This document shows positions 8,062 through 50,322 of a stretch of DNA of 64,000 nt, one piece after another. Position 1 is the stretch's first letter, and each line of letters starts with the position of its first letter. The position numbers were made by a program, and so were the translations under genes. The stretch lies in the NCBI GenBank assembly GCA_046350755.1, contig JAXLZV010000001.1, positions 406,372 to 470,371 of the forward strand. Reading direction: 5' to 3'. Source of the stretch: Candidatus Saccharimonadota bacterium (GTDB lineage Bacteria > Patescibacteriota > Saccharimonadia > CAILAD01 > GCA-016700035). The notes beneath the pieces were generated by a model. That model did no database searches, was not told where the DNA came from, and saw only the letters and a program-made list of their open reading frames with translations.

Positions 8062-8102
8062 CGGCAAACCTCTCGTGATCAGTGTATCATTTTGCGCCGG
8101 CT

Positions 8103-26807: not shown

Positions 26808-26889
26808 AGTTACTTCTTATTCTACCGAAGCGTAAGCGATAAAAGAAGGGGGCTACTGTAGCTTCACCTCAATCACGATCTATAAAATA

Positions 26890-29193
26890 TCAAGAAACAT
26901 AACGACTATGCATCGAAAGTATTTTCAAGCCAAGCCATAATCCAGACAAAGTGAGCATAATTATGGTAATCACATACCGCCACACACTCTCCCCCGTCGG
27001 CGCCAAACTCGTCGTCGCCAGTCCCACGGGATCTATCACCGTGCCATTGACGAGTCCATCTTGGTCGAGTGGTCCACCGTCAGTGATTTGGTACGTGAGC
27101 TTGAGCATAGACTTACCGTTGTAGTCTTCTCGGGTAATGGTAGCGCCTGGGATGTCGGAGTAGGTTTTGGAGTCTGTCTTGTACTTTCGAGCCGTGTAGT
27201 CAGAAGGGTTACCGGGGAGATCGTAGTAGAGAGTGACGGTCTTAGTAGCTCCGGGGGTGGTGGTGAATTGGAAGGATGTGAGACCAGCCGGATAGCTACC
27301 AGCAGAATCTTTGGGGAGAGACTTGGGATCGATGGCTGAGACGGTAGGACTGGTCACATCACCGGGGAGGACGAGAGTGACGGTCGAACCTTTGACGGGG
27401 TCGGGGTAGGTTAAGGGTTGGCCGGTATTGCCGCCACCATCAGTAGACTGACAGTTGTCGGTAGAGACGTCGTGGTCGCAGAGGATGTCGATAGACCCTG
27501 ATGCCGGCAGGGCAACATAGAGCCTACCATTAGGTCCAACATCCATGCCATAAGGATAATACCGATTTCCTGAAATATCCCTCGCTTCATTACTGTACAC
27601 AGTCTGGTAGATCCCATTTCTATCAAATTTTTGAATACGACCACCTCCGTCTTGCAAAACATCAGAGGCATATATATCTCCACTATTACTTACTGCAATG
27701 CCAAGTAAATAATTAAATTCTCCAGCCGTCGACCCTTCTACACCAAGCTTCATTAAGAAATTGCCGGAGCTATCAAATTTTTGAATGCGGTGATTGCTAG
27801 TATCTCCAACGTACAAATTATCTTGGTTGTCTACCGAAAGGTAAGCCGGTCCATCAGTAGCATCAAATTGACCATTACCGGAACCTTTTGAGCCAAACTG
27901 ATTGAGTAATGTACCCGAACTAGAATACTTATATATTTGACTCGCCGCTTGATTAAACCAGTAAACGTTATCTTGCGAATCGGCAGCAATACCAAAACCC
28001 TCCTCTGGTAGATTCCACGCATCTAGTGTTTGGCCACCATAATTCAACTTTTTCAGCTTTAACAAACCTCCGTCTGCCGCTGCAACTGTATATATATAAT
28101 TTGGTGAAGTCGTGACCATGTAATCAATTTCGGTATTTGATGTCCACGTATCTAGGAACTGACCAGTAAGGCTATACGACACTAATCCTACATCGCCTTC
28201 AAGAAATGGTATATATAATTTATTTCCATGAACTTTAAGAGTATATGCAGTAATAAGATCTTGATTCGTAACGCCGCCAATAATGCTTACAAAATTGCCT
28301 AATGCATCGAACTTTTGAATTCTATTATTATAGGTATCTGCAACATAAATATTGGCACTTGAATCAATCGCTATTCCCCTTGGAGTATCAAACAGGCCCT
28401 CAACTTCACCAATTGAGCCGAACTGCGATTGATATACTCCAGAGCTGTTGAATTTTTGGACACGCGTATTATCTAAAACAAATATATTACCTGTACCGTC
28501 AATTGAAATGCCCGTGGCACCAGAAAATTGCCCATCGCCAGAGCCCTCGGACCCAAATTGCGATTGATATACTCCAGAGCTGTTGAATTTTTGGATGTCG
28601 CTGCTGGTTACAACATAAATGTCGCCATTCAAATCTAGATCTAAGCTATCGGCAGATGCCTCAAATTGTGATTGGTACACACCAGAACTATCAAATATTT
28701 GGACACGATTATTGCCCGTGTCGGCAACGAGCATACTTCCATCGGATTTAATGACTAAGTCACGTGGTAAATTTAACTCACCATTACCGCTACCATAAGA
28801 ACCAAACTGACTCAGATAATTACCCTGACTATCAAACTTTTGAATGCGATGATTATTTGTATCAGCCACATATAGATTGTCTGCAGAATCGGTTGCAATA
28901 CCGTAAGAATATCCAAACTGCCCATCACCAGTGCCGGCAGCTCCAAACATCAGCAGATAATTACCAGAGCTGTCATATTTAATAACACGCCTATGGTTAC
29001 CATCAAACACGTAAATATTATCTTGAGTATCAAGAGCTACATCTTGAGCTTCACTGATTGGGGGTGAGCTATACCCCCCAATATGCCCGATATTAGTAAT
29101 GCCAGTCGCAGCGTGAGCATGACTTGAGAGTGCGAGCATAGCTACTGCAGCAATAGTCAGGGCTGAAAAAGCTTTGGTGAGCTTGGTAATCAT
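26890..29193 (-). CDS. NHL-repeat beta-propeller surface protein, shared C-terminal module + LAPTG sorting signal
   Basis: Signal peptide; repeated YVADTNNHRIQKFD NHL repeats; C-terminal YPAGLTSFQFTTTPGATKTVTLYYDLPG...LAPTG-TM. Confidence 0.8.
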   Translation of the reverse strand: MITKLTKAFSALTIAAVAMLALSSHAHAATGITNIGHIGGYSSPPISEAQDVALDTQDNIYVFDGNHRRVIKYDSSGNYLLMFGAAGTGDGQFGYSYGIATDSADNLYVADTNNHRIQKFDSQGNYLSQFGSYGSGNGELNLPRDLVIKSDGSMLVADTGNNRVQIFDSSGVYQSQFEASADSLDLDLNGDIYVVTSSDIQKFNSSGVYQSQFGSEGSGDGQFSGATGISIDGTGNIFVLDNTRVQKFNSSGVYQSQFGSIGEVEGLFDTPRGIAIDSSANIYVADTYNNRIQKFDALGNFVSIIGGVTNQDLITAYTLKVHGNKLYIPFLEGDVGLVSYSLTGQFLDTWTSNTEIDYMVTTSPNYIYTVAAADGGLLKLKKLNYGGQTLDAWNLPEEGFGIAADSQDNVYWFNQAASQIYKYSSSGTLLNQFGSKGSGNGQFDATDGPAYLSVDNQDNLYVGDTSNHRIQKFDSSGNFLMKLGVEGSTAGEFNYLLGIAVSNSGDIYASDVLQDGGGRIQKFDRNGIYQTVYSNEARDISGNRYYPYGMDVGPNGRLYVALPASGSIDILCDHDVSTDNCQSTDGGGNTGQPLTYPDPVKGSTVTLVLPGDVTSPTVSAIDPKSLPKDSAGSYPAGLTSFQFTTTPGATKTVTLYYDLPGNPSDYTARKYKTDSKTYSDIPGATITREDYNGKSMLKLTYQITDGGPLDQDGLVNGTVIDPVGLATTSLAPTGESVWRYVITIIMLTLSGLWLGLKILSMHSRYVS

Positions 29194-30401
29194 TTCTGCA
29201 AGGCCTTTCGACTCACCCAGACACCACCGGCAATGAGAGTAATTACGCCAAGCATATACGCGGAGAGATTAGTGCCGGTGTTGGCCAAACTGGTAGTCGC
29301 TAGTCCCACGGGATCAATCACGGTGCCATTGGCGAGTCCGTCTTGGTCGAGTGGTCCACCGTCAGTGATGTTGTAGGTCAGTTTAAGCATAGATTTGCCG
29401 TTGTAGTCTTCACGGGTGATGGTAGCGCCTGGGATGTCGGAGTAGGTGCGAGTTGCAGAGTTATACTTCCGAGCGGTGTAGTCAGAAGGGTTACCGGGGA
29501 GATCGTAGTAGAGGGTAACGGTCTTGGTAGCACCGGGGGTGGTGGTGAATTGGAAGGATGTGAGACCAGCGGGATAACTGTAGGCAGAGTCTGCCGAGAT
29601 AGCACTAGCAGCAATAGGGATAATTTGGGGATTGGTGACATCACTGGGGAGGATGAGAGAGACCGGTTTATTGTTAGAAGTACTACCAGTAAGGGGCTGG
29701 GGCGAGCAGTTAGCGTCATCATACGTCAGTTGGACCGACTGTATGGTTGTTTGTGCAATTGTAGTTGATCCGTTAAACCAGTGCTGCACGTAGATCCCTA
29801 GCGTATCTCCTGGAATATACGTGCTCAAATCCCAGGTAGCATCAAGCTGACCGGCTAATCCAAGTGCAGCCGGGAATTCACCGTTATGACCTACTCCACG
29901 ATCAACTGCTGGAGTAGCAAATGGTGCTGGAAACCAAGTATCTAGATCTTCGCCTTTACCATCATTAATTGTGTAATTACTCCTAAATACTAGGCCATCT
30001 GAGCCGCCATATAGTGCAAGAAAAAGCCCGCTCAAAGGTGTTTCATTTTGAGTTTGCGTATCGGTAATAAGCCTCATTGATTGTATTTGCGCACCGTTAC
30101 AGAGAGTCGGCATCGTTATGTGCCACGTATAGACCCAGGGACCGGGTGTATTATTCGAATCAAGACTGTCAGATTGTGTGGTCGTAGTATTTAAGGGTTC
30201 TTTTAACTCCACACCTGTATCGGTTGCCCTTATACCGCCTGCGGTAATATATGGATCGTCATTTGCAATTGTAGTATTGAGCTGAATTGTTTGAGATGCG
30301 GCATGGGTAGGAGCAGCCGCTACTAACATGCCGGTACCGCAGAGTATGGCAAACAATCCAACAGCCGCAATGCGGCGGAAAGCCCTCTGCTTACTTCTCA
30401 T
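29190..30401 (-). CDS. secreted surface protein, shared C-terminal module + LANTG sorting signal
   Basis: Signal peptide; C-terminal module and LANTGTNLSAYMLGVITLIAGGVWVSRKALQK tail; 4-nt overlap with the downstream gene. Confidence 0.7.
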   Translation of the reverse strand: MRSKQRAFRRIAAVGLFAILCGTGMLVAAAPTHAASQTIQLNTTIANDDPYITAGGIRATDTGVELKEPLNTTTTQSDSLDSNNTPGPWVYTWHITMPTLCNGAQIQSMRLITDTQTQNETPLSGLFLALYGGSDGLVFRSNYTINDGKGEDLDTWFPAPFATPAVDRGVGHNGEFPAALGLAGQLDATWDLSTYIPGDTLGIYVQHWFNGSTTIAQTTIQSVQLTYDDANCSPQPLTGSTSNNKPVSLILPSDVTNPQIIPIAASAISADSAYSYPAGLTSFQFTTTPGATKTVTLYYDLPGNPSDYTARKYNSATRTYSDIPGATITREDYNGKSMLKLTYNITDGGPLDQDGLANGTVIDPVGLATTSLANTGTNLSAYMLGVITLIAGGVWVSRKALQK

Positions 30402-30499
30402 GCTTCTATCTTAACAAAGCTGGAGATCTGCGACAATAAAACAACAAGTCAATTCTACAGTCAAGCTGTTGTCTCATCATCCCTTTGAGCCAGCTACAG

Positions 30500-31447
30500 T
30501 TAAGGGCTGGGTGTTGACTGCGGGGAGACATCCGGCGATTCGGTCGGTGAAGGCGTGGATGGTGACGCCGTGGGCGATGGTGACGACGGCACAGGCTTCG
30601 GGCTCGGCTTAGGTACTTTCGGAGACTGAGATGGCGAAAAGTTTGGCAACTTAAAGAGTAGCTTACGAAGCTGCTCGGCTTGTGCTGGTGTCAGCGGCTT
30701 AGACGGTGTAGTCCCCTTAGCTATCGGTGCATTTGGAGCTTGTTGTGACTTACCCGACGTTGACTGTTGCCATTTCTCTGGGCCATCCTTGGTGGTAGCC
30801 TCGATCACAATCCGCCCATCAGCCGAGCCACCCAGCGAGCAGCTATAAAGTGTTAGCTTCGAGGTTTCGCTGGGCGCCTCGATTTCCGTCGCATTCGGCT
30901 TCACACTATACTTCTTTGTCACCGTGTAGGTATACCATTTACCCTTGAAGAATATCCGCATCGTATCACCCTCTTTGAGCTTGTCCAGGTTATAAAATGG
31001 TGAACGTTTCTTCGTCTCGGCTGGCGTGGTACCAATACTAAAACGATGGGCTGAGAGGATGAAGTTACCTCCCTGCTCTGGATCGCCACGATCCGGATAA
31101 CGGTGCCACGAGCCCTTATCAAGCTCCTCTGGACCGCCGGTGAAGAATGGTACCTCAAGATTAATTTTCTCGATTTGGATGCGATCGCGATTATCAGTTG
31201 CATCGTCGGCTGTATTCAGATCGATCTCCGACTTACCAGCCAGTATCGGCAGCTGTGGGGTAAGCAACAAGTACGCCATATAGAGACCAGCTGCAATTAA
31301 GCCGATCGAAAGGGCTAACAGGAGTCCTCGCTTGCGCTTGGATACTTTTCTGGCAGGTCGATGTGGCAGTCCTGCGCCGGATTGATCATTTGGCAGTATG
31401 TGCCTGCGTTTGCGCGAACGAAAAAGCTGCGGTTTCTTTACTTTCAT
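30500..31447 (-). CDS. sortase (class E-like) with Pro/Ser-rich C-terminal tail
   Basis: N-terminal TM, catalytic His in ILSAHR, TLxTC-type Cys motif LTLYSCS, C-terminal (SP/TP)n tail. Confidence 0.85.
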   Translation of the reverse strand: MKVKKPQLFRSRKRRHILPNDQSGAGLPHRPARKVSKRKRGLLLALSIGLIAAGLYMAYLLLTPQLPILAGKSEIDLNTADDATDNRDRIQIEKINLEVPFFTGGPEELDKGSWHRYPDRGDPEQGGNFILSAHRFSIGTTPAETKKRSPFYNLDKLKEGDTMRIFFKGKWYTYTVTKKYSVKPNATEIEAPSETSKLTLYSCSLGGSADGRIVIEATTKDGPEKWQQSTSGKSQQAPNAPIAKGTTPSKPLTPAQAEQLRKLLFKLPNFSPSQSPKVPKPSPKPVPSSPSPTASPSTPSPTESPDVSPQSTPSP

Positions 31448-31634
31448 AAGCTTTTATTATAACCGATTTTTCTGAGATCGAACTGTGCACAGTAGCCCCG
31501 GTCCAATGGTACTAAGCACGATCATCGCGGTCAGATAGCCAAGCGTCTACTCTACTGTACCATCAGCTTTACCAGCCTCAGCCGTTCGATACAACATATA
31601 TATCAGGCATGCTGCATTATGCTACAGTTTCTAT

Positions 31635-33044
31635 ATGGCTACACCTGCACCGAAAACTGTTTTATTAGTGCCATTTAGCTCGAATGATCAATCACGGATC
31701 CTGATTTGGCAGCATGTCCATAGTTGGCTCACGCAAACTTTGGATTACCCACTCTACCTAGGTGAACATTTTCCTGAAACTCCAGGCACCTATAACCTCA
31801 GTCTCGCCCGCAACCTCGCAGCCCAGAAAGCTGGTGACTGGGAAGTGGCGGTTATCCATGATGCTGACACGGTCATTAACCCACAGCAGATTACCGCCGG
31901 TGTGGCCGCCGCCTATGAAACGGGTGCCGTCACCTACCCCTACACTGAGCGCTGGGAACTAGACTTTACCGGCACGAAAATGTTGCTCAGCGACGAAACC
32001 AGCAAATGGCAGCAATATATGACACCATATGCACACAATCAACCGCTTGGTGGTTGTATCATTGTGCGTCGGGACTTATGGGAGCTAGTACGTGGTTTTG
32101 ACACTGGCTTTGTGGGCTGGGGCCACGAAGACGGCGCGTTTGCGATTGCCTGTCAGGTTTTGAGCGGCAAACTGTTGCAGCGCATCCCCGGCAAATCATT
32201 GCATCTCGAACACGTCTTGGCACCGGCCAAGCGACCAGACAATCCTATCTATCGTGCTAATAAGGCACGCATCGACCAATATATACAGGCTGGCGACCAG
32301 CCGAATGGGTATGAGCTCATCCGGAAACTGCGTGATGCGTCCATTGCAACCGATCAAGCAAGCGGTATTCACTGGTCACCAAATGAATCTGAAAACAAGG
32401 GCATGAATACCACCACTGCCCTCATGCTCTTGCGCGATGTAGCGGCAGTACTCGAGAAGTATCAGTGTACTCATTGGCTGAGTGATGGCACCTTGCTTGG
32501 TACGATGCGCGAGAATGATTTCATCGCCCATGATGATGATGTCGACCTCGGTGTATGGGCGGCGGACTTTGATATCCGCGTCATCCACGAACTCATCAAT
32601 AGATATGGTTGCAGAATAGTCAGGCTACAAGGCACGCCAGATGACGGTATGATCATCTCCGTACAACGACTTACCGTTCATCTGGATATGTTTTTCTATT
32701 ATCCCCTAGCAAAGTCAGAGAAAGGACATCCGTCAGCAAAAATCTACCACAGCATCTATTTTCTCGAAAAACCTTACAATACATCGAATAAAGCCAGACG
32801 ATACAATTGCGTGTACCCAGATTTCAAACCACTAGTGCGGCGTAGCTTTAAAGGCCATGAGTTTTGGGTACCCGAAAATGCCAAGCAGCATTTGGTCGCT
32901 GCCTATGGTAAGGACTGGAGAAAACCACAGCCAAATTGGGATACCGAGAAAGATCAGCCTAATCTCGTGCGGCATGGCACCGCCAGTGATATGGCAGCCG
33001 ACCGACAGCAGGTTGAACAGTTTCTCAAAATACGTCGACTATGA
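31635..33044 (+). CDS. bifunctional GT-A glycosyltransferase / LicD-family phosphotransferase fusion (copy 1)
   Basis: N-terminal GT-A: HDADTV (DxD), GGCIIVRRDLWELVRGFDTGFVGWGHEDG. C-terminal LicD: WLSDGTLLGTMRENDFIAHDDDVDLGVWAADFD. Confidence 0.75.
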   Translation: MATPAPKTVLLVPFSSNDQSRILIWQHVHSWLTQTLDYPLYLGEHFPETPGTYNLSLARNLAAQKAGDWEVAVIHDADTVINPQQITAGVAAAYETGAVTYPYTERWELDFTGTKMLLSDETSKWQQYMTPYAHNQPLGGCIIVRRDLWELVRGFDTGFVGWGHEDGAFAIACQVLSGKLLQRIPGKSLHLEHVLAPAKRPDNPIYRANKARIDQYIQAGDQPNGYELIRKLRDASIATDQASGIHWSPNESENKGMNTTTALMLLRDVAAVLEKYQCTHWLSDGTLLGTMRENDFIAHDDDVDLGVWAADFDIRVIHELINRYGCRIVRLQGTPDDGMIISVQRLTVHLDMFFYYPLAKSEKGHPSAKIYHSIYFLEKPYNTSNKARRYNCVYPDFKPLVRRSFKGHEFWVPENAKQHLVAAYGKDWRKPQPNWDTEKDQPNLVRHGTASDMAADRQQVEQFLKIRRL

Positions 33045-33973
33045 TCCTTGCGTCATCGCCCAACCCACTATCTTTTGTAGAGTTTGAGGTTTTGCGACAG
33101 CTCACGAGTCAGAATGAATATACAGTATCAAGCCTGCCTGACTCACTCATCTTTCTTAATGCACAGGAAATACAGCATGCCGTTCAAGATTTACTCCAAA
33201 AAAAACTTGTGCAGCAGTCACGCCACACACTCCTAGCTACCCCCGCAGCACAGTCTGCCCTCGAGCCATACCGAGTTAAGCGCGCCGTAATTTTAGCAGC
33301 TGGACGGGGTGAACGCTTGCGACCAGAAACAGACACTACCCCAAAACCGATGGTACGAGTACACCACAAGCGACTGATCGAAACACAGCTCGATGCCCTC
33401 GCTGCGGCTGGCATACATGATGTCACGATTGTGCGCGGGTATAAGGGCGAGCTATTCGATGAGCTACTGGAGACATATCCGCACATCAAATTTATCGATA
33501 ACCCTCGTTGGGACAGTACTGGCGGGATTGTTTCAGCCGCACTGGCAGTCGATAAACTAGCTGGAGCCTACCTGATAGAAGGCGATTTTTTCGTAAAAAA
33601 CCCGGCCGTACTCCGACCATACGAATACCGCAGTTCGTATTGTGGTACTCTGGGCGCGACCCACAATGACTGGTACTTTTCGGTCGACCAAGCGCAAAAA
33701 ATTCATGCCCTCGCCTTCGGAGACTCACAACCGAATGACTATAAATTTATCGGTATCATGTACTGGGCGCCACCAGAAGCCGAGCAGCTCAAGCTTGATC
33801 TGCCGACAGTATTACAAACTCCTGCTGGCAAGCAGGGTTTTATTGAGGGTGTCCCATTTAATGCTCAGGCTGGCACCTACAATATCTATGCCAGGCGGCT
33901 ACTGAATGGTGATGTGACAGAAATTGACACACATGCAGAGCTGCTGGCATTGCGAGCTCGTGAGCATCGATAA
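33041..33973 (+). CDS. LicC-like sugar/phospho-alcohol nucleotidyltransferase with ~85-aa N-terminal extension (copy 1)
   Basis: AVILAAGRGERLRPETDTTPKPMV...IVRGYKG (compare LicC AIILAAGLGTRLRP..TENTPKALV); 4-nt overlap with the upstream gene. Confidence 0.75.
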   Translation: MILASSPNPLSFVEFEVLRQLTSQNEYTVSSLPDSLIFLNAQEIQHAVQDLLQKKLVQQSRHTLLATPAAQSALEPYRVKRAVILAAGRGERLRPETDTTPKPMVRVHHKRLIETQLDALAAAGIHDVTIVRGYKGELFDELLETYPHIKFIDNPRWDSTGGIVSAALAVDKLAGAYLIEGDFFVKNPAVLRPYEYRSSYCGTLGATHNDWYFSVDQAQKIHALAFGDSQPNDYKFIGIMYWAPPEAEQLKLDLPTVLQTPAGKQGFIEGVPFNAQAGTYNIYARRLLNGDVTEIDTHAELLALRAREHR

Positions 33974-34160
33974 TTATCCCGAGAGCTACGACCCAGTTTG
34001 GCAATTCCTGCTTATAGATTGATGCAAGGAAAAAATTGACGATGCTTATGGTTAGACGATACTATGAACAGAGTATCAACATACGTGGTTCTACTCCAAA
34101 GCACACGGAGAGATATGAAAAGTAGGTACCGACATAATTAAGTCAGTAAAAAGGGTCTAG

Positions 34161-36050
34161 ATGGCAATCAACACGCATGCGCTGCAGGCGAAATTAACCT
34201 CAAAAGAATTTGCCTTTCTGTGTTTCCTCTTGGTAGTGGTGTTTGTGTATCGACCCGGCCATGCTCACGCCGCGACCATTGATGTCGCGGCTGGCTCAAG
34301 CCTGGCTAATCCTGGCGACAACATCTGTCAAATTAATGAAGCCATCGAAAACGTTAATAGCGGCACACGAACCTATGCTGACTGTATCGAGACTGGCAGC
34401 TATGGAAGCAACGACACTATCAACCTGCCCATCGGTACGATCACAGGTCCTGGCTCTTCTCTAACTAGTGTATACAAGTATAATAATGAGAGCTTAAAAT
34501 TTGTTGGCCAAGGCCGCGGCCAATCAATTCTCGATGGCGCTGGGCTCTACCTGGTCGGTGACGGAAACTACACCGTGCAAGATCTCACCATGACAGGCTA
34601 TGGGGTTGAAGCGCACAACAGCTCCAACCTCACAATTAAGAACGTCGAAATTGATTTATTAAGCGGCAGTGGCCCAGCCATTTTGGCCGATGCCAGCAAT
34701 GTCGACATCCAGGACAGCTACTTCCATAGTATGCTCCCCAATGGTTCAGGCTATGCGCTTGTTAACTTTGAGGCCTTCAATAACAACACTTTCACGATGA
34801 ACCGCACCACCCTGAGCGATGCCGGTCAAGGTTTGCTGCTACTGCTTTCAGGCAGTGGCTTGGAGGATGCGGCTAGTGCAACTATTACTAATAGCACTTT
34901 CACCGACCTGACCGGCTTGGGCGGCCTCGATGGCAGTGGCTTTTTCTCTACTGCAACCGGTATATCTGCTGGGGCTATAACCTACGGCAGTGGCAGTGTT
35001 ACCCTCAACTACACCACCACCAATAACACCTTTAGTAACATCACCAACAGCGATAACGGCTTCGTTAAGGCCGCGGCAATTCGGGAAGCTTCGTATTTTG
35101 AGGGCAGCGGAGCCGCCACCGTTAATCACACTGCACACAACGATCTGTATGCAGTGGGTAATGGCAGTAGTGCAGTCAATTACAATCGCTTCGACATATC
35201 CGCTTTACTTGGTTCAGGCTCCGGCTCCAACGGCAGCTATACTACCACCAGTAACGGTGGGAATGTCTCGAGTGACAATTCGTTCGCAAGCTACCTGACC
35301 AACCCCATGGACAAGCACAATGAGACCTCGCTGGCATCATTCTTGGGTGTCTTGACTGACAATGGTGGCTCAGCGCCTACCCTCGCACTGACTGAAGGCT
35401 CACCCGCCATTGATGCTGGGACCAATGTTGGTGGTATGACGACTGACCAGCGGGGTGCCACGCGACCACAAGGGAATGCCTTCGATGCCGGTGCCTATGA
35501 GTCAGCTTTCTCGGTTGCCTTTCCGACCCTGACCTACCCCGACCCCATCAAAGGCTCGACCGTCACCCTCGTCCTCCCCGGTGGTGTGACCAATCCAACG
35601 GTTGGAGCGGTAAATTACACGACACTTCCCAAAGACGGAGATAACAAGTATCCGGCTGGTCTGACGACCTTCACCTTCACCACCACTCCTGGTGCGACCA
35701 AGGCCGTCACCCTCTACTACGATCTCCCCGGTAGTCCAGCTGACTACACAGCTCGGAAGTACAACACTACGACCAAGCTGTATAGCGATATCCCGGGAGC
35801 TACCATCACCCGCGAAGACTACAACGGTAAGAGTATGCTGAAGCTCACTTACTCCATCACTGATGGTGGCATCCTCGACCAAGACGGTACGGTCAATGGC
35901 ACGATTGTGGACCCCGTGGGGCTGGCCACCACCAACCTGGCGGATACCGGGATGAATGCGAAGCTGTTGTCTGTCCTGGCAGCTGGCCTGCTGGCACTGG
36001 CCACATCCATCATGGTGCTGGCAAGTCGACTTGATCGTCGCTTGAGGTAG
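34161..36050 (+). CDS. sortase-anchored beta-helix surface protein with CSLREA-like motif, shared C-terminal module + LADTG
   Basis: Signal peptide; ICQINEAIENVN; N-x-T/S-rich beta-helix repeats; C-terminal module; LADTG-TM-RRLR. Confidence 0.75.
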   Translation: MAINTHALQAKLTSKEFAFLCFLLVVVFVYRPGHAHAATIDVAAGSSLANPGDNICQINEAIENVNSGTRTYADCIETGSYGSNDTINLPIGTITGPGSSLTSVYKYNNESLKFVGQGRGQSILDGAGLYLVGDGNYTVQDLTMTGYGVEAHNSSNLTIKNVEIDLLSGSGPAILADASNVDIQDSYFHSMLPNGSGYALVNFEAFNNNTFTMNRTTLSDAGQGLLLLLSGSGLEDAASATITNSTFTDLTGLGGLDGSGFFSTATGISAGAITYGSGSVTLNYTTTNNTFSNITNSDNGFVKAAAIREASYFEGSGAATVNHTAHNDLYAVGNGSSAVNYNRFDISALLGSGSGSNGSYTTTSNGGNVSSDNSFASYLTNPMDKHNETSLASFLGVLTDNGGSAPTLALTEGSPAIDAGTNVGGMTTDQRGATRPQGNAFDAGAYESAFSVAFPTLTYPDPIKGSTVTLVLPGGVTNPTVGAVNYTTLPKDGDNKYPAGLTTFTFTTTPGATKAVTLYYDLPGSPADYTARKYNTTTKLYSDIPGATITREDYNGKSMLKLTYSITDGGILDQDGTVNGTIVDPVGLATTNLADTGMNAKLLSVLAAGLLALATSIMVLASRLDRRLR

Positions 36051-36092
36051 GCGCGCCGTACATAGGGGTGGGATGTGTGATACAGTTTCTCT

Positions 36093-37499
36093 ATGACTCC
36101 TACATCACCAAAAACAGTCCTTTTGGTGCCATTCAGCTCACCTGAGCCGTCGCGAGTTCTCATCTGGCAACATGTCCGGAAGTGGCTCGAGCAAACTTTG
36201 GATTACCCGCTCTACGTCGGAGAGCATTTTCCCGAATCGACTGAGACCTACAACCATAGCCTAGCTCGTAACCTTGCGGCCCAGAAAGCTGGCGACTGGG
36301 AAGTAGCGGTTATCCATGATGCTGACACAGTGATTAACCCAAAGCAAATTACCGTTGGTGTAGCCGCCGCCTATGAAACTGGCGCTATTACCTATCCCTA
36401 CGACGAACGCTGGGAGCTCGACACCACTGGCACCAAGATGTTCCTCACTGATACAACCAGCAACTGGCAACAACACATGACGCAATATACTCGTGATGTT
36501 CCACTCGGTGGCTGCATGATCATCCGACGAGATCTTTGGGAACTAGTACGTGGTTTTGACACTGGCTTTGTGGGCTGGGGCCACGAAGACGGTGCGTTTG
36601 CGACTGCCTGTCAGGCGTTGGATGGCTGGAGGCTCTTACGCATTCCCGGCAAATCATTTCATCTCGAGCACGTCTATGCACCGGCAAAAAACCCAGACAA
36701 TCCAATCTATCGCGCTAATAAGGTGCGGATCGACCGATACATGCAGGCTGGCGACCAGCCCAATGCTCACGTGCTCATCCAAAAACTACGCGATGAATCA
36801 ATTCCTACCGACCTAGAGCATGGCATCATGTGGTCAATACCCCAATCCGACGATAAGAAAATGCACCAAGCGCTCGCCTTCATGCTCCTACGCGACATTG
36901 CTAGCGTGCTCGAGAAATATCAGTGCACCTATTGGCTGAGTGATGGCACCTTGCTTGGTGCGATTCGAGAAAATGATTTCATCGCCCACGATAACGACGT
37001 TGACCTCGGGGTGTGGGCGGCCGACTTTGATGTCCGGGTTATTCACGAACTGCTACATAGATTTGGTTGTAGATTTGGCAGACTCCAGGGTAAGCCTGAT
37101 GACGGCATGCTGATCACGCTCCAACGAGCGGGCGTACATCTCGATCTGTTTTTTTATTATCCTCTCAAAAATTCAACTATTTCTGAAAAATCAGCAATCT
37201 ATTGCAGTAGTTATATGCTGCTAAAGCCCTACGACTCGTCAAATAAAGCCAAGCGTTATGACTATCTCTACCCAGATTTCAAACCACTAGTGCGTCGCAG
37301 CTTGAAAGGTCATAATTTTTGGGTACCCAAAAATGCCAAGCAACATTTAATTGCTGCCTATGGTAAGAACTGGCGCACACCACAGCCAAACTGGGACACC
37401 ATGAAAGACCAGTGCAACATTAAGTCTCACGGTATTGTGAAAGATATGGCGGCCGAGCGACAGGCAATCGAAGAGTATTTACAGTTACGTCGCGCATGA
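36093..37499 (+). CDS. bifunctional GT-A glycosyltransferase / LicD-family phosphotransferase fusion (copy 2)
   Basis: Paralog of 31635-33044 with identical motifs and stretches of near-identical nucleotide sequence. Confidence 0.75.
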   Translation: MTPTSPKTVLLVPFSSPEPSRVLIWQHVRKWLEQTLDYPLYVGEHFPESTETYNHSLARNLAAQKAGDWEVAVIHDADTVINPKQITVGVAAAYETGAITYPYDERWELDTTGTKMFLTDTTSNWQQHMTQYTRDVPLGGCMIIRRDLWELVRGFDTGFVGWGHEDGAFATACQALDGWRLLRIPGKSFHLEHVYAPAKNPDNPIYRANKVRIDRYMQAGDQPNAHVLIQKLRDESIPTDLEHGIMWSIPQSDDKKMHQALAFMLLRDIASVLEKYQCTYWLSDGTLLGAIRENDFIAHDNDVDLGVWAADFDVRVIHELLHRFGCRFGRLQGKPDDGMLITLQRAGVHLDLFFYYPLKNSTISEKSAIYCSSYMLLKPYDSSNKAKRYDYLYPDFKPLVRRSLKGHNFWVPKNAKQHLIAAYGKNWRTPQPNWDTMKDQCNIKSHGIVKDMAAERQAIEEYLQLRRA

Positions 37500-38449
37500 A
37501 TGCCGCCACAACAGATCAAAACCTATCGTATGCTACATTCGAAGTGTTACAGTATGCCGTCACCCAAGACGGAGTAGATCCGGCCGATAGTAGCCATGAG
37601 ACCTTGGGTCTAAGTAAAACCGATAGAGATTTCGCCATCAAACAGCTTATTCATAAAGGATTGTTGCGTAAGACCGGCCGCATCCTCCGAGCCACCGCCG
37701 CCGCACAGTCGGCCCTCGAGCCATACCGAGTAAAGCGCGCCGTAATTTTAGCAGCCGGACGTGGTGAACGTCTGCGACCAGAAACCGACACTACCCCAAA
37801 ACCAATGGTACACGTACACAGTAGACGTCTCATCGAAACGCAGCTTGATGCTCTGGCCGCCGCTGGCATCCGTGACATCACAATTGTACGTGGGTATAAG
37901 GGCGAGCTGTTTGATGTGTTGTTGGAGACATATCCGCACATCAAGTTTATCGATAATCCTCGTTGGGACAGTACTGGAGAGATTATCTCGGCATCGTTAG
38001 TTATCGACTATCTCGCTGGCGCCTACCTCATCGAAGGTGATTTGTATATTCGCAACCCGGCCGTGCTGCGACCATACGAGTATCGCAGTTCATGGTGCGG
38101 AAAGCCCGGCGCGACCCACAATGACTGGTACTTTTCGGTCGACCAGAAGCAAAAAATTCACGCCCTCGCTTTTGGAAATACACAAGGTCAGCACGACTAC
38201 ACGTATGTTGGTATTGAATACTGGGCACCCCCAGAAGCCCGCCAGCTCAAGTTTGATCTGCAGACAGTATTACAAACTCCAGCTAACCAGCAAGGCTTTA
38301 TTGAATCTATCCCGTTTGATCCCATATATGGTACCTACAATATCTATGCCAGGCGATTGCTAGATGGTGATGTTACAGAAATCGACACACATGCAGAGCT
38401 GCTGGCATTGCGGGATCGTGAGCATCGCGAACCAGCTTTTCGGCCATAA
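37496..38449 (+). CDS. LicC-like nucleotidyltransferase with N-terminal extension (copy 2)
   Basis: Paralog of 33041-33973; AVILAAGRGERLRPETDTTPKPMV; divergent N-terminus FEVLQYAV...LSKTDRDFAIKQLIHKGLL (wHTH-like). Confidence 0.75.
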   Translation: MNAATTDQNLSYATFEVLQYAVTQDGVDPADSSHETLGLSKTDRDFAIKQLIHKGLLRKTGRILRATAAAQSALEPYRVKRAVILAAGRGERLRPETDTTPKPMVHVHSRRLIETQLDALAAAGIRDITIVRGYKGELFDVLLETYPHIKFIDNPRWDSTGEIISASLVIDYLAGAYLIEGDLYIRNPAVLRPYEYRSSWCGKPGATHNDWYFSVDQKQKIHALAFGNTQGQHDYTYVGIEYWAPPEARQLKFDLQTVLQTPANQQGFIESIPFDPIYGTYNIYARRLLDGDVTEIDTHAELLALRDREHREPAFRP

Positions 38450-38471
38450 CCTTTTCCCAGCACATATCTAT

Positions 38472-41400
38472 CTACAAAACTGATAGTTTTGTAGACGCGA
38501 GAGTGAGGCCAAGGCCTGCGAGGATGAGAGAGCCCATGGCGCAGAGATACGCCCAAGTACTCTCCCCCGTCCCCGCCAAACTCGTCGTCGCCAGTCCCAC
38601 GGGGTCCACAATCGTGCCATTAGCAGTGCCGTCTTGGTCAAGTGCTCCACCGTCAGTGATGGAATAAGTGAGTTTGACGGCGTGTTGGCCACCGATCGTG
38701 ACGTCGGTGAGGGCGGCTCCGGGAATATCTGAGTAGGTGCGACTGGTCGCATTGTACTTGCGAGCTGTGAATGAGTTTGCTCGCGCATCGGTATAGAAGT
38801 AGAGTTCTACGGGGATAGTAGCTCCTGGAGTCGTGGTAGCGGTGAAAGAGACGAAGCCTAGAGGATAGTCTTTCCCCTTATCTTGGGTTGAGAAGGAGCG
38901 AGCTTGTTCAATGATAGTGGCATCAATGGTGACACCATTCGGAACTACGAGGGTAATGTAGCGCCCGTCGGCATTGGGGAGTGACGTGACGTTAGATTGC
39001 TGAGCGTCTGGGGTGCCATCATTGTTACCGTCTCCATTGTTGGGAGCTGCGTTTTCGATGGTGTCGGGGATGGTGTCGGTGTCGGAGGAAGTAGGGGCAG
39101 CACCGTATATCAGATTAAAAATATTGTTAGAAGCTATTGAGTAAAGTGGCGTCCCAGTCTGAACAGCCTCAAATAAAGCCTGAATGTCCGGCTCTTGGTC
39201 AAAACTATCATGTATCAGCGCACCACGAAGAGTATTATTGCCTACTGCAAAGTCTGAGGTAGCAATCAGGCTTAAGCTTAAGGTCAGCTCAGTGGTGCTT
39301 GGGAGGACAGCATTACTAAATCGTACCTCGCAGATTACCAGATCTTCAGAGTAAGGAGCGAAGGCAGGAATGGAGTCTACTTGATTCATAGGACCAACAT
39401 CTGCACACCCAGTGGTATATAAATCATTGGGAGAAATAGAAACACTATCATATGTTGTATTGGTGGGAAGGTTGAAGTAAATAATTACTCCATCACCGGC
39501 AAAGTAACCAGGGCCAAGGTTCTTGAGATTCACTTCGTAGTTGGCAGTATCGCCGGATGTAATTGGTTGAGCATTGAGGAGTTTGGCGGTAAGACTGAGG
39601 TCGGTTTGCTCGGGACACGGCAGAGTGAAAGTTCGGTCTTCGCCATAGGCACGACCAGCTGAGTTTTCGGCATAAGCACGGTAATGATATGTGGTGCCAC
39701 ATGTAAGATCGTAAAGGTATGCATTACTATCCGTGTTAACCCCATAATAACTACCAGTACTCGTGGCGCCATAACTATTATCGAGGCCGTACTCGACACC
39801 AGTGCTGGGAATCTCATTACCTTCATCTGTGACCATATACTTAATTCTGGCAGAAGTACCTTGCGAGTTCTCGCGAGTGGCTGAGCCGGTATTGATAACT
39901 GGAAGGCTCGGGCAGGCGGATGTCGTAAAAGTTGCGTCATCCCCATAAGTTACAGCCTCATTGTTTATGGCGTAGGCGTGGTAATGATAAGTAGCGTTAC
40001 AATCCAAATCTGCAATATTAGCGCTGAAATCACCTGAGTTAGTTGTCTGGGTAAATATTTGGATTCGATTATATGTAGTATCGGACAGAATGAGTTGTCC
40101 TTGATTATTCATCGTTAGTCCAACAACGAAATCAAACCCACCAGCGCTCATTGTTTGCTGACCCCATTTGGTGATAAAAGTCCCACTTTCATCAAATATC
40201 TTCATGCGTCGGTTCTCCGTATCAGAAACAAACACATATCCTTGCGGACTTGTAGCCAAGCTTACGGGCAGAATAAACTGACTATCGCCTGAGCCCTGCG
40301 ATCCCCACTTGAGCATAAAGGCTCCATTGTTATCGAACTTTTGAACGCGATTATTGTTGCGATCAGCTACATAGAGATTATTTGAGGTATCAACAGCTAT
40401 CCCATACGGCAGATTAAACTGTCCATCATTACTCCCGAGAGTACCCCATTGGCTAACATATGATCCTGAGCTATTAAACTTCTGGATACGATTATTTTGA
40501 GTGTCGGCGACAAACATATTCCCATTTGAATCCACGGCAATGCCATAGGGGCTTGAGAGCTGTCCATTCCCAGACCCCGACGTGCCAAATTTGCTGATAA
40601 ACATTCCTGAGCTATTAAACTTCTGGATACGATTATTCGCGGTATCAACAACGTATATATTATTTGAAGAGTCGATTGCTAGACCTGTTGGGTTATCGAA
40701 CTGACCATCGCCCGAACCAGACGATCCCCATTGGGTTATATATGAGCCATTGCTATCAAACTTCTGGATACGATTATTATTACGATCAGCTACATAAATA
40801 TTATTTGAGGTGTCAGTGACGACTCCATAGGGGTGACTAAACTGACCATTAAGAGATGGATTGTGACCCCATTGCAAGAGATAGTTACCGCTGTTATCAA
40901 ACTTCTGAATGCGACCATTCTCATTATCACCAACGTATACATTGCCAGAAGAGTCTACCGTAATGCCGCGGGGCCCGGAGGCGAACTGATTATTACCTGT
41001 TCCGACAGACCCCCACTTGAGAATGAAGCTCCCGCTACTATCAAATTTTTGCACATTCGTACCATAAAGATCGAGCACAAAGATATTGCCCGAAGAATCT
41101 ACAACAAGGTTTATAGGTGCAATAAACTGACCATCGCCCGAACCAAAAGATCCCCATTTCAGAATAAAGGCACCATTGCTGGTAAATTTTTGGATACGTC
41201 GATTATCAATATCAACTACATACACGTTATTAGATGAGTCGATAGCTAGGTCAACAATGCTTCCAAATTGCCCATCACCACTGCCCTGCGACCCCCATTG
41301 GGTAAGTAAATTATCATTTGCATCATATTTCTTGATAGTGTGATTATTCGAATCGGCAACATAGATATTATTGGCAGAGTCCACTGTAATACAGCCGGTG

Positions 41401-49359: not shown

Positions 49360-49360
49360 A

Positions 49361-50113
49361 TTAATCCCTCAATTCCTTGCCGGTGAGATCGATAAACACA
49401 TCCTCGAGCGTGGCGGGGACCACCTTGCGATGCGGCTTGAAGCCTTTCTTCAGGAGATTCTCGATCAGTTTCTTAGGAGTATCCAGCGCGACTATCTTGC
49501 CCTCATCCATAATCGCAATCCGGTCGCACAGATACTCAGCCTCATCCATGTAGTGGGTGGTTAAAATCACCGTCTTACCGGAGGCTTGGATCTGCTTGAC
49601 GAGCTCCCAAAGATTACGTCGTGCCTGTGGGTCGAGACCGGTCGTTGGCTCATCAAGAAAAATTACGATCGGGTCATTCACCAAAGCCGCAGCAATGGAA
49701 AAACGCTGTTTCTGGCCGCCCGACAGCTCCTTGACCATATTCTTTGACTTCTCAACCAAATCAACTTCCTCTAGGAGTAGCTTGGGATCTTTATTCAAAG
49801 AATACAGATTTGAAAACAGATGCAGGATTTCGACCAGGGTCAGCTTGTCAAAGAAACTCGAGCTCTGGAGCTGCACGCCAATCATTTCTTTGACGGCATA
49901 CGGATCCTTGGCAACGTCGACATCATTAATCATGACCGAGCCGCTACTGAGCTCACGCAAACCTTCCATAATCTCGAGCGTGGTTGTCTTACCCGCACCA
50001 TTCGGTCCGAGAATCCCAAACACCTCACCCTTTTTTACCGCAAACGAGACACCCTTAACTGCCTGAAAGTCGCCATAGTTTTTCTTGAGATTTTTAACCG
50101 TGATCAGTGTCAT
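49361..50113 (-). CDS. ABC transporter ATP-binding protein
   Basis: Walker A GPNGAGKTT, signature LSGGQKQR, Walker B ILDEPT. Confidence 0.9.
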   Translation of the reverse strand: MTLITVKNLKKNYGDFQAVKGVSFAVKKGEVFGILGPNGAGKTTTLEIMEGLRELSSGSVMINDVDVAKDPYAVKEMIGVQLQSSSFFDKLTLVEILHLFSNLYSLNKDPKLLLEEVDLVEKSKNMVKELSGGQKQRFSIAAALVNDPIVIFLDEPTTGLDPQARRNLWELVKQIQASGKTVILTTHYMDEAEYLCDRIAIMDEGKIVALDTPKKLIENLLKKGFKPHRKVVPATLEDVFIDLTGKELRD

Positions 50114-50304: not shown

Positions 50305-50322
50305 ACCACTTCACTGAATCAT

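Follow-up and report, generated by a model that had tools for sequence, protein, structure and literature searches.

Why should two neighbouring nucleotidyltransferases with closely similar catalytic cores begin with N-terminal regions that differ so widely? The question is raised by a pair of genes in a 64-kb stretch of a Candidatus Saccharimonadota genome (64,000 nucleotides, hereafter the window). A preliminary description of this stretch regarded both products as LicC-like nucleotidyltransferases with a divergent N-terminal extension, and saw the contrast as fitting diversifying selection on duplicated catalytic cores of a surface-modification pathway. The reading favoured here, to which we assign a probability of about 0.65, is that both are functional genes of a subfamily joining a winged helix-turn-helix (wHTH) to a LicC-type core, that they act in head-group transfer together with fusion proteins of a glycosyltransferase and a LicD-type phosphotransferase (GT-LicD), that their N-termini are mosaic, and that the wHTH has a role other than DNA binding.

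Two paralogous genes and their GT-LicD partners

Both reported open reading frames, 33041-33973 (copy 1, C1) and 37496-38449 (copy 2, C2), are present at exactly those coordinates on the + strand (Table 1). Their products share 70% identity (BLASTP, E 2e-163), which rules out a chance match and makes them true paralogues; the C2 protein is identical to NCBI P0003, which belongs to a Candidatus Saccharibacteria MAG. N-terminus and core do indeed contrast: over residues 1-66 the copies agree at 16 of 66 positions (24% for protein, 42% for DNA), whereas residues 67-310 reach 83% for protein and 81% for DNA, and sliding windows show identity rising at the junction, from 40% or lower to at least 75-100%. 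The statement that the copies are near-identical from SALEPYRV onward holds for residues 67-106 (38 of 40 identical, 95%), the sole stretch to reach 95%, but is overstated for the rest of the catalytic domain, where identity is 60-95% by 20-residue window.

Table 1. Features of the two modules and their surroundings (positions in the window)
Feature	Coordinates	Strand	Evidence
Sortase, class E/D-like, below subfamily cut-offs, divergent from module 1	30500..31447	-	
G1: 469-aa fusion of GT-A glycosyltransferase (N-terminal) and LicD-type phosphotransferase (C-terminal)	31635..33044	+	Pfam
C1: wHTH-LicC-type cytidylyltransferase, 310 aa	33041..33973	+	ORF, BLASTP, Pfam, fold
C1 winged-helix domain, residues 1-66	33041..33238	+	AF2 model, residue conservation
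C1 region equivalent to the C2 mosaic junction	~33218-33280		
C1 linker helix, residues 67-80 (TPAAQSALEPYRVK)	33239..33280	+	Conservation
C1 catalytic NTP-transferase domain, residues 81-310	33281..33970	+	Pfam, LicC alignment, fold
Surface protein between the modules: signal peptide, choice-of-anchor Q and U domains, LADTG sorting signal	34161..36050	+	
G2: 468-aa GT-LicD fusion, G1 paralogue	36093..37499	+	Pfam, identity
C2: wHTH-LicC-type cytidylyltransferase, 317 aa	37496..38449	+	ORF, BLASTP, Pfam
C2 winged-helix domain, residues 1-66	37496..37693	+	Model, fold matches, trees
C2 approximate putative mosaic junction, codons ~60-66 through linker helix	37673..37735	+	Sliding windows, pS profile

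Each cytidylyltransferase gene is preceded by a GT-LicD gene whose stop codon overlaps its start (ATGA in both cases, G1 with C1 and G2 with C2), an overlap that does not figure in the preliminary description. Since the overlapping GT-LicD genes are themselves duplicated (74% amino acid identity, dS ~1.26), the duplicated unit is a two-gene module. G1 carries a DAD motif (...VIHDADTV...) in its GT half and DGTLLG...HDDDVD in its LicD half; the pattern by which LicD was recognized, DGTLLG...R...(F/I)...DDD(V/I)D, is found as WLSDGTLLGTMRENDFIAHDDDVDLGVW in G1 and in equivalent form in G2. Pfam LicD is matched at E 9e-9 (G1) and 1e-8 (the other copy) and Glyco_transf_7C at E 8.6e-6 (G1), and a match of GT-LicD to the NCBIfam Mf1 cholinephosphotransferase falls below the cut-off.

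A GT-LicD gene precedes the wHTH-nucleotidyltransferase (wHTH-NT) gene in every Saccharibacteria locus examined, and in most of them wHTH-NT adjoins a sortase and/or large surface-type proteins. In the island studied here a sortase accompanies proteins with choice-of-anchor U domains and LAxTG signals, and the combination of sortase and GT-LicD is also found in L007/L008. This constant pairing and these neighbours point to the decoration of cell-surface glycoconjugates. The phospho-N-methyl-threonine modification of Clostridium difficile flagellin (PMC4441256) was considered as a surface-protein-glycan analogue and retained as an analogy only.

Related genes occur in Lactobacillus (L. johnsonii, L. 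reuteri), where a wHTH-NT homologue (38-41% identity) lies beside a LicD or TagF-like transferase and a second wHTH-NT is fused to a choline/APH-type kinase, as in LicCA-type fusions; P0121 joins both in one chain. In contrast to this cassette, the Saccharibacteria modules contain neither kinase, permease nor OCD/mu-crystallin gene, have their LicD fused to a GT, and have sortase substrates for neighbours, not the genes of a Wzx/Wzy polysaccharide locus. The Lactobacillus OCD/mu-crystallin gene, kinase and NT might conceivably correspond to the pneumococcal CDP-2-glycerol pathway (Gtp1-3). For a comparison with that pathway, Bentley 2006 gives no families.

The LicC-type catalytic core

The assignment to LicC-like nucleotidyltransferases is borne out by both sequence and fold. 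Among PDB sequences the closest match is pneumococcal LicC (1jyk; phmmer E 4e-22; family profile E 2.4e-40, with the profile spanning the whole LicC chain), which Foldseek also ranks first (E 5e-21, target TM 0.89, rmsd 2.3 Å over 235 columns). PntC is the second-best fold and profile match (profile E 1.6e-20), so that the family lies nearer to LicC. Both copies exceed the gathering thresholds of Pfam NTP_transferase (PF00483) and NTP_transf_3 (PF12804). The superfamily signature, sought as L-A-A-G-x-G-x-R-[LM]-x-P followed by (T)PK, is present in both as a glycine-rich loop and PK motif (AAGRGERLRP...TPKPMV), and this stretch aligns to the glycine-rich loop of LicC. Each of 68 homologues has G88, R92, P95, P101, K102, D182, W211, E294 and D296. 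Besides the loop and TPKPM motifs, the C1 catalytic domain carries D182, W211, E180, E269, E294 and D296, among which D182, W211, E294 and D296 align to LicC D107, W136, E216 and D218. In the LicC structure, D107 and D218 are Mg-binding acidic residues; the metal-binding acids thus have their counterparts here. LicC E216 coordinates metal (Rice et al., 2019, PMC6697681). Active-site residues at odds with NTP-transferase chemistry had been named in advance as grounds for rejecting the assignment, and the residues found fit that chemistry. By sequence, C1 and C2 are intact LicC-type nucleotidyltransferases with their catalytic residues kept.

The likeness to LicC of Streptococcus pneumoniae (PDB 1JYK/1JYL) thus extends to the glycine-rich loop, the lysine, D107/E216/D218 and Trp136 of the choline pocket. 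The differences are that LicC has no N-terminal domain, its chain beginning at the family '...RVK' motif, that LicC D105 and D192 are replaced by Glu and Y190 by Phe, and that identity is only ~28%. As in the pneumococcal Lic-1 pathway, a cytidylyltransferase gene is paired with a LicD-family phosphotransferase, but here LicD is fused to a glycosyltransferase and neither licA nor licB lies inside the 64-kb window.

Substrate pocket and head group

In the C1/C2 family, the positions of LicC D105 and D192 are both occupied by Glu (C1 E180 and E269, kept in at least 90% of sequences), so that the phosphocholine-type Asp/Asp pocket, in which the small Asp residues leave space for the trimethylammonium group alongside an aromatic box, is absent; W211 corresponds to Trp136, and Tyr190 is replaced by Phe. 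In PntC of Treponema denticola (Tde1415, PDB 6PD1/6PD2), Glu104 and Glu196 contact the AEP amine where LicC has Asp; Glu/Glu has been linked to AEP and Asp/Asp to phosphocholine, and E196 equated with LicC D192 (Rice et al., 2019, PMC6697681). The Glu/Glu pair of PntC is shared by the C1/C2 family, E104 aligning directly with the first family Glu and LicC D192, the E196 equivalent, with the second. Although the LicC Trp is kept, Glu at both LicC-Asp positions, as in AEP-specific PntC, makes a head group with a smaller amine, such as phosphoethanolamine or an AEP-like group, at least as likely as phosphocholine.

The gene content of the locus bears on this point. The LicD domain is present, fused to GT, but within the 64-kb window no kinase, permease, LicB, Ppm or head-group transporter was found, nor any PEP mutase, phosphonate biosynthesis or uptake gene. 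If the substrate were a phosphonate, a kinase would be dispensable, in agreement with its absence from the Saccharibacteria loci. The setting nevertheless differs from that of PntC, which has no wHTH, in that Ppm, Ppd and AEP transaminase are all missing nearby. A further parallel to PntC is the PhnU2-like ABC permease to which some distant relatives are joined, albeit with a match below the NCBIfam cut-off; these relatives carry Asp in place of Glu as their second pocket residue, and on both counts the case for AEP as substrate drawn from the fusions is weakened. The Glu/Glu pocket, together with the absence of a kinase, makes the head-group substrate a cheaply testable question.

A winged helix at the N-terminus

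As modelled with high confidence, the N-terminal extension is a genuine winged helix-turn-helix. Fold prediction of this region, which had been proposed as a check, gave for C1 an AF2 model (pLDDT 95.4, pTM 0.92) in which residues 11-80 are folded (pLDDT ~84-97) as H-H-H-beta-beta (helices 12-23, 29-35 and 41-53, strands 57-60 and 63-66) followed by a linker helix. The C2 N-terminus modelled alone (pLDDT 80) has the same topology despite 23-24% identity, and matches MarR-type, MotA and CggR wHTH folds (TMq ~0.7, rmsd ~2 Å); the DSSP topology of a wHTH is thus found in two independent models. The helix-turn-helix-like stretch noticed earlier corresponds to the recognition helix and wing of this fold. 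Likewise, the FEVL segment said to be common to both copies proves to be family-wide, with F15, E16 and L18 nearly invariant in 68 homologues; these three residues, L51 and L56 are the conserved wHTH positions, and all are also kept in C2. The linker helix (consensus ...ALEPYRVK) is the most conserved family stretch outside the active site, with L74 and V79 invariant and P76, Y77 and K80 in at least 90% of sequences.

A mis-called start or an unstructured leader, which would have undone the preliminary description, is rejected: the wHTH is present in 116 of 122 sequences (120 top homologues plus both window copies), so that the start codon is not mis-called, and the model is well folded. Neither copy matches a Pfam HTH family at E <= 0.1, and membership of the HTH clan is thus not apparent for them; when 68 homologues were scanned individually (E <= 0.01), HTH_45 was matched by 11, MarR_2 by 10, HTH_24 by seven, MarR by five and TrmB by four. 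The combination of wHTH and LicC-type core is widespread, comprising 561 clusters at 50% identity that span at least Saccharibacteria and Lactobacillaceae. Full-text searches found no description of such a subfamily, nor any relevant paper in which 'LicC' and 'winged helix' occur together, and a 2023 survey of phosphorylcholine genes makes no mention of Lactobacillus, Saccharibacteria or an N-terminal domain (PMC10434233). A scan of genome contigs with back-translated C2 motifs turned up no close relative; its sole matches, in Proteobacteria and Bacteroidota, were to the N-terminal motif common to NTP-transferases in general.

Origin of the divergent N-termini

The difference between the two N-termini most likely reflects evolutionary mosaicism rather than diversifying selection. 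According to the latter explanation, C2 is a recent duplicate of C1 whose wHTH diverged fast under positive or diversifying selection for surface modification while the core remained constrained. An N-terminal dN of 0.886 set against the core dS of 0.77 would indeed imply an omega of ~1.15, but synonymous sites of the N-terminus, unlike those of the core, are saturated (pS >= 0.75) and the alignment is weak, so that the C1/C2 N-terminal dN/dS is uninterpretable. When C1 is compared with its orthologue P0002 (dS ~0.43, unsaturated), the wHTH has an omega of 0.32, against 0.13 in the core; it is therefore under purifying selection, weaker than that on the core. The divergence does sit in the exposed H2-H3-wing (10-20% identity, windows starting at 21-41), the genes stand among variable surface proteins and a close orthologue of the C2 wHTH was not found, all of which diversification would explain. 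Yet the C2 wHTH does not form a long branch off C1: it shares 31-35% identity with outgroup wHTHs, no further from them than the C1 wHTH is, and 23% with C1.

The two domains also give conflicting trees. For the core, NJ bootstrapping places C2 as sister to the C1 clade (292 of 300 replicates), in line with 83% identity between C1 and C2 against 66% between C1 and P0008. For the wHTH (NJ only, 66 fast-evolving columns), the C1 clade groups with the P0004-8 clade and leaves C2 outside in 231 of 300 (77%). At core sites that distinguish C1 from P0002, C2 agrees with C1 at 56 and with P0002 at 23 (p = 2.6e-4), while the outgroup P0008, used as a control, splits 36:28 (gene-conversion test against control, Fisher p = 0.08); at the corresponding wHTH sites C2 is split 9:11. 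Taken as sequence evidence, this suggests that the C2 wHTH is phylogenetically older than, or foreign to, its own catalytic core. With synonymous divergence saturated and the alignment weak, an 'older' N-terminus is not fully separable from a 'faster' one.

The neighbouring genes bear on the timing. From GT-LicD identities (G1-L007_Ga 81%, G2-L007_Gb 74%, G1-G2 74%, Ga-Gb 62%) one obtains the tree ((G1,Ga),(G2,Gb)); the GT-LicD neighbours were thus duplicated before the lineage split, and the catalytic cores, of which the L007 lineage has a single NT, appear younger than that split. Conflicting domain trees and an older GT-LicD duplication together suggest homogenisation of the cores or a swap of the wHTH, the break lying around codons 60-66. 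Diversifying selection, at variance with the purifying omega between true orthologues, with the wHTH tree and with the age of the flanking duplication, is in our judgement unlikely.

Much less likely still is that C2 is a redundant duplicate in decay, whose N-terminus drifts neutrally since it is no longer needed. The L007/L008 lineage has kept the second GT-LicD without a second NT, and no close C2 orthologue appeared in the databases searched, as decay would predict. C2, however, is a full-length ORF that retains the ATGA overlap with its upstream gene, its core has an omega of 0.14 with every catalytic residue intact, and its N-terminus keeps F15, E16, L18, L51 and L56 in a predicted wHTH (pLDDT 80).

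What the winged helix may do

The preliminary description offered substrate specificity, partner interaction or regulation as roles of the extension. Substrate specificity finds no support, since the conserved wHTH positions are residues of the hydrophobic core, E16 and the linker; partner interaction or regulation is possible. With lower confidence, we infer that the wHTH is a structural, oligomerisation or partner-docking module and not a classical DNA-binding regulator.

A working DNA-binding domain would make these proteins bifunctional enzymes and transcription factors like BirA or NadR, autoregulating the module, with the paralogues recognizing different operators. The fold does match MarR-family DNA-binding domains, MotA and the CggR DNA-binding domain, with a common H1-H2-H3-wing topology (TM ~0.7, rmsd ~2 Å), but the same search returns the wHTHs of enzymes, namely O-methyltransferases and the C1 component of HPAH reductase. 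Some homologues have weak Pfam MarR, TrmB or HTH_24 matches, and one bears the NCBI name 'winged helix-turn-helix transcriptional regulator'. Unlike MarR, the C1/C2 wHTH has no dimerisation helix pair, and unlike MarR and TrmB it has no conserved basic recognition residues and is covalently joined to an enzyme. Neither the recognition helix (41-53) nor the wing (58-65) has a conserved Lys or Arg. The C1 recognition helix, AQEIQHAVQDLLQ, contains no basic residue and its domain has a net charge of -2 with just four K/R in 73 residues; the C2 helix contains three basic residues. Firmicute members have semi-conserved basic residues at 12, 23 and 30 and net charges of up to +7, and variable recognition helices could follow variable operators; the mean net charge of the wHTH is ~ -0.2, and a near-neutral domain does not in itself exclude DNA binding.

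Operator-like sequences give no encouragement either, as the sequence upstream of either GT-LicD gene contains no inverted repeat or palindrome. Sites resembling promoters or terminators occur about as often as expected from shuffled sequence. Small palindromes occur at 34058-34077 and 34122-34148, upstream of the surface-protein gene. In natural fusions the wHTH is internal, lying behind a 12-TM-type ABC permease (P0147, P0173, P0200) or midway along an 892-aa enzyme (P0121, a single wHTH-NT-kinase-wHTH-NT polypeptide), positions that sit poorly with a DNA-binding role. On balance we regard that role as improbable.

A more specific, and speculative, proposal is that the wHTH is a pairing or insulation device through which each cytidylyltransferase docks its cognate GT-LicD, or a specific acceptor or oligomer, creating two insulated CDP-head-group channels. 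We give it only a small chance. If true, the two channels would give different decorations to the sortase-anchored glycoproteins on the surface of an episymbiotic Saccharibacterium, and selection keeping the wHTHs distinct would explain why homogenisation halted exactly at the domain boundary, as well as the paired and fused Lactobacillus wHTH-NT paralogues and the permease-wHTH-NT fusions.

A model for the modules

In the mosaic reading that we prefer, GT-LicD and cytidylyltransferase would be translationally coupled, as the ATGA overlap suggests. The cytidylyltransferase would make a CDP- or CMP-activated small head group, which the LicD half of its partner would pass as a phosphodiester onto a sugar placed by the GT half. 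The acceptor would belong to the cell surface; glycans on the LAxTG surface proteins encoded nearby and a wall polymer are both plausible. The GT-LicD/NT module would have been duplicated long ago, and the catalytic cores of both NT genes later homogenised by gene conversion or replacement, with a 5' boundary near codons 60-66; alternatively, C2 may have gained a foreign wHTH. By either route, an old and divergent wHTH would sit on a young core.

Concluding remarks

The enzymology is expected to be conventional, and current understanding is not overturned. Domain-level mosaicism can mimic diversifying selection, a useful caution for scans of this kind. A large LicC-like subfamily with a built-in winged helix is brought to light, and the decoration of surface glycoconjugates is indicated for Saccharibacteria, episymbionts with minimal genomes. 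LicC/LicD-type head groups, such as phosphocholine, AEP and related groups, are a major determinant of how bacterial surfaces are perceived by hosts and partners.

The duplicated unit and its surroundings

Both open reading frames of the preliminary description, hereafter copy 1 (C1) and copy 2 (C2), were confirmed on the forward strand (see table) and are unambiguous paralogues (BLASTP identity 70%, E 2e-163); C2 is identical to an NCBI protein of a Saccharibacteria MAG. Each start codon overlaps, in an ATGA, the stop codon of an upstream gene. These upstream genes, G1 and G2, are 74% identical and encode fusions of a GT-A glycosyltransferase (GT) with a LicD-type phosphotransferase (Pfam LicD, E about 1e-8; Glyco_transf_7C, E about 1e-5). 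The duplicated unit thus exceeds the nucleotidyltransferase (NT) gene alone and includes the GT-LicD gene that precedes it. Homology reaches about 15 nt 5' of both GT-LicD start codons (31620-31637, ACAGTTTCTaTATG; 36078-36095, ACAGTTTCTcTATG). No obvious Shine-Dalgarno-like purine run is found in this stretch, which may be conserved as a leader or as an element of translation initiation.

The two modules are embedded in a cell-surface island encoding six large secreted proteins with N-terminal beta-helix/NosD-like, NHL-propeller (ScyF-like) or CSLREA regions, five of which end in a choice-of-anchor U domain, an LAxTG-type signal (SLAPTG, SLANTG, NLADTG, SLAGTG), a hydrophobic helix and a basic tail. 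The 187-bp gap between C1 and the following surface-protein gene holds small imperfect palindromes at 34058-34077 (GATACTATG..CAGAGTATC) and 34122-34148 (TACCGACATAATTAAGTCAGTA), the latter also scoring as a terminator-like hairpin on the minus strand. Elsewhere in the window, a second, unrelated NTP_transferase, probably of the sugar-1-phosphate type, adjoins an ABC-2 exporter pair (48223-50113) and a DUF2207 membrane protein, and the genes grouped around RimK (5337-8163) could form a system adding and trimming peptide tails.

Features of the two modules, their surroundings and a related Lactobacillus locus
Feature	Coordinates	Strand	Remarks
MATCAP-like protein	5337-6656	-	carboxypeptidase-like C-terminal region; flanks RimK
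RimK ATP-grasp ligase	6713-7618	-
Putative ATP-dependent zinc protease	7642-8163	-	flanks RimK
Cell-surface island	24424-44221		20 kb
Sortase	30500-31447	-	among island surface proteins
G1, GT-LicD fusion	31635-33044	+	469 aa
C1, NT	33041-33973	+	310 aa
Surface-protein gene	34161-36050		between the two modules
G2, GT-LicD fusion	36093-37499	+	468 aa
C2, NT	37496-38449	+	317 aa
Polysaccharide deacetylase	44288-45715	-	adjoins the island
Second NTP_transferase	50275-51189	+	full-length (241/245 Pfam positions); no winged helix
Envelope genes	59068-63979	-	ferric-reductase-like membrane flavoprotein, DUF2079, Wzy_C/O-antigen-ligase-like protein, GT2 (window edge)
Lactobacillus-type cassette	7069-13218		on contig L001

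A LicC-like catalytic core

From about residue 82 onward, C1 and C2 match Pfam NTP_transferase and NTP_transf_3, and no NCBIfam equivalog comes near its cut-off against either protein. The proposed likeness to LicC was borne out: pneumococcal LicC is the closest solved protein (E 4e-22 in a single-sequence search), and a profile of 68 family members covers the entire LicC chain with an E-value of 2.4e-40, followed by the phosphonate enzyme PntC (1.6e-20). The AlphaFold2 model of C1, built on the 68-sequence alignment, is very confident (pLDDT 95.4, pTM 0.92), and its best PDB match is again LicC (TM 0.89 on the target, rmsd 2.3 A), with PntC in second place. The family shows no variation in the nucleotide-binding loop AAGRGERLRP, a PK motif, D182, W211, E294 and D296; the loop and the last four residues align to the LicC loop, D107, W136, E216 and D218. 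Both copies therefore look catalytically competent, with the residues expected for NTP-transferase chemistry intact.

A folded winged helix at the N-terminus

The N-terminal extension (residues 1-66) is predicted to be a folded winged helix-turn-helix (wHTH) domain, as had been suspected, since the modelled N-termini of C1 and C2 share this topology. In C1, residues 12-66 form helices H1 (12-23), H2 (29-35) and H3 (41-53) and a beta-hairpin wing (57-60 and 63-66), and a further helix (68-77) connects the wing with the first core strand. The C2 N-terminus, modelled alone from 42 aligned sequences, adopts the same topology (pLDDT 80) and superposes on MarR-family regulators, the MotA activation domain and the CggR DNA-binding domain (TM about 0.7, rmsd about 2 A), with E-values (5e-3 to 4e-2) that are weak, as expected for a domain of only 66 residues. 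A mis-called start codon was considered and rejected: among 122 sequences (120 homologues and the two window copies), 116 have at least 45 residues before the conserved linker, and the top homologues, about 300 aa long, cover some 95% of the query.

Small subsets of the 68 members weakly match HTH families in Pfam (HTH_45, 11; MarR_2, 10; HTH_24, 7; MarR, 5; TrmB, 4). A profile of the wHTH only recovers 561 clusters at 50% identity among 1.84 billion representatives, the named wHTH-NT members coming from Candidatus Saccharibacteria and Lactobacillaceae. The architecture is already visible in database annotations, one homologue being named by NCBI a 'winged helix-turn-helix transcriptional regulator' and others a 'phosphocholine cytidylyltransferase family protein'; no description of it was found in the literature searched.

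Origin of the divergent N-termini

The preliminary description contrasted divergent N-termini with near-identical cores. The contrast is real, with protein identity of about 23-24% (DNA 42%) over residues 1-66 and 83% (DNA 81%) over residues 67-310, but 'near-identical' holds for residues 67-106 only (38/40), with 20-residue windows elsewhere in the core ranging from 60% to 95%. The step up in identity falls at about codons 60-66, where the wing ends and the linker helix starts.

Diversifying selection, to which this contrast had been attributed, is not borne out. Between C1 and its orthologue P0002, omega is 0.32 in the wHTH and 0.13 in the core, with dS of 0.41-0.45, and hence unsaturated, in both domains; family-wide, the wHTH is the faster-evolving domain, yet it is under purifying selection. 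We instead favour a mosaic history at the level of domains as the most likely explanation. Core identity is 83% between C1 and C2 and 66% between C1 and P0008, an NT homologue of the related Saccharibacteria lineage L007/L008. The order is opposite in the wHTH, at about 23% and 36-41%, respectively, although the C1-C2 N-termini are saturated and weakly aligned, so that 'older' and 'faster' can be separated with limited firmness. In neighbour-joining trees of each domain (300 bootstrap replicates, firmicute outgroups), core sequences place C2 as sister to the C1/P0002 clade in 292/300 replicates. With the wHTH, a grouping of the C1 clade and the P0004-8 clade that leaves C2 out appears in 231/300, and one of C2 with C1 in only 65/300. 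The C2 wHTH is as similar to those of the outgroups (31-35% identity) as is the C1 wHTH, and therefore does not behave as a fast-evolved derivative of C1.

The GT-LicD genes add a relative date. Identities between G1, G2 and the two paralogues of L007 (Ga, Gb) are 81% for G1-Ga, 74% for G2-Gb, 74% for G1-G2 and 62% for Ga-Gb, and the four-point condition favours ((G1,Ga),(G2,Gb)), that is, a duplication that would predate the split from the L007/L008 lineage. This relative has a single wHTH-NT, after its first GT-LicD gene, and one cytidylyltransferase may serve two transferases there; its second GT-LicD gene (L007 13110-14513, L008 13105-14508) is followed by a GDSL lipase gene.

Two scenarios fit these data: gene conversion may have overwritten the core of an ancient paralogue up to the domain boundary, or a younger copy may have acquired a foreign or old wHTH. 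Of the core sites that distinguish C1 from P0002, C2 shares the C1 state at 56 and the P0002 state at 23 (p = 2.6e-4); in controls, the outgroup P0008 splits 36:28 and C2 at N-terminal sites 9:11. This pattern suggests concerted evolution of the two cores, but is not decisive (Fisher's test against the P0008 control, p = 0.08).

A proposed structural or docking role for the winged helix

Conserved positions of the domain (F15, E16 and L18 in H1, L51, L56, T67, G70 and the linker L74-E75-P76-Y77-R78-V79-K80) belong to the hydrophobic core or connect the domain with the catalytic core. No basic residue is conserved in the family alignment on the outward-facing sides of H2, H3 and the wing, which are hypervariable. 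Net charge averages -0.2 across the family and is -2 in C1, which has four K/R and no basic residue in its recognition helix AQEIQHAVQDLLQ; no palindromes were found upstream of either GT-LicD/NT module. The domain also occurs inside larger enzymes. Among the proteins matched by the wHTH profile, P0121 is a single 892-aa chain ordered wHTH-NT-choline kinase-wHTH-NT, and P0147, P0173 and P0200 place a two-domain PhnU2-like ABC permease before wHTH-NT, in a fusion of 858 aa; a kinase-fused Lactobacillus johnsonii neighbour likewise starts with a wHTH and an 'ALKPYKV' linker. A further protein, P0127 (wHTH-NT start, CPSase ATP-grasp, SecY), has the appearance of a chimera produced by assembly or gene calling. 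Fold searches with the C2 wHTH also returned wHTH domains that belong to enzymes, not transcription factors, namely O-methyltransferases and the C1 component of HPAH reductase, and the high pTM of the C1 model suggests that the wHTH is docked on the core in a fixed manner. Because of these conserved positions, charges, fusions and enzyme-borne matches, the lack of palindromes and the pTM, we favour a structural, oligomerization or partner-docking role. A module-specific interaction would be consistent with the phylogeny of the wHTH, which follows that of the GT-LicD gene next to it. Some wHTH domains, particularly those of basic firmicute members, may nonetheless bind DNA.

A proposed head-group decoration pathway

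In every Saccharibacteria locus examined, the wHTH-NT gene lies directly 3' of a GT-LicD fusion, and in most a sortase and/or large surface-type proteins stand beside it. In the simplest mechanism, the NT would supply the head group in CDP- or CMP-activated form, the partner's GT half would add a sugar, and its LicD half would join the head group to that sugar by a phosphodiester, on a surface glycoconjugate. Functionally, the sequences point to a LicC/LicD-type decoration system, which departs from textbook Lic-1 in that the NT has a built-in winged helix and a PntC-like pocket, LicD is fused to a GT, licA and licB are absent nearby, and the modules lie among sortase substrates in a Saccharibacterium.

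Both pocket positions occupied by Asp in LicC (D105, D192) are Glu in the family, which retains Trp136 and has Phe in place of Tyr190. In Tde-PntC the corresponding Glu residues contact the primary amine of AEP, and the smaller Asp residues of LicC are argued to make room for choline (Rice et al., 2019, PMC6697681). Permease-fused relatives have Asp at the second position, and their permease best matches, below cut-off, the putative AEP permease PhnU2. The 64-kb window was found to contain neither a kinase nor a LicB-type permease nor a PEP mutase. Phosphocholine, phosphoethanolamine and AEP are all plausible head groups on these sequence grounds, and an annotation of the gene as a LicC specific for phosphocholine should be avoided.

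In Lactobacillus johnsonii and Limosilactobacillus reuteri-type contigs (L001-L006), a conserved cassette ends Wzx-type polysaccharide loci. It comprises a LicD (or TagF-like Glyphos_transf), a wHTH-NT, a wHTH-NT fused to a choline/APH-type kinase, an APC amino-acid/ethanolamine-type permease and an enzyme of the ornithine cyclodeaminase (OCD)/mu-crystallin family, and may conceivably be linked to the pneumococcal CDP-2-glycerol (Gtp1-3) pathway.

A useful outcome of this analysis is that the reading of diversifying selection is corrected to one of probable domain-level mosaicism. It also flags a widespread, uncharacterized LicC subfamily, whose substrate and winged-helix role are open to simple experiments.
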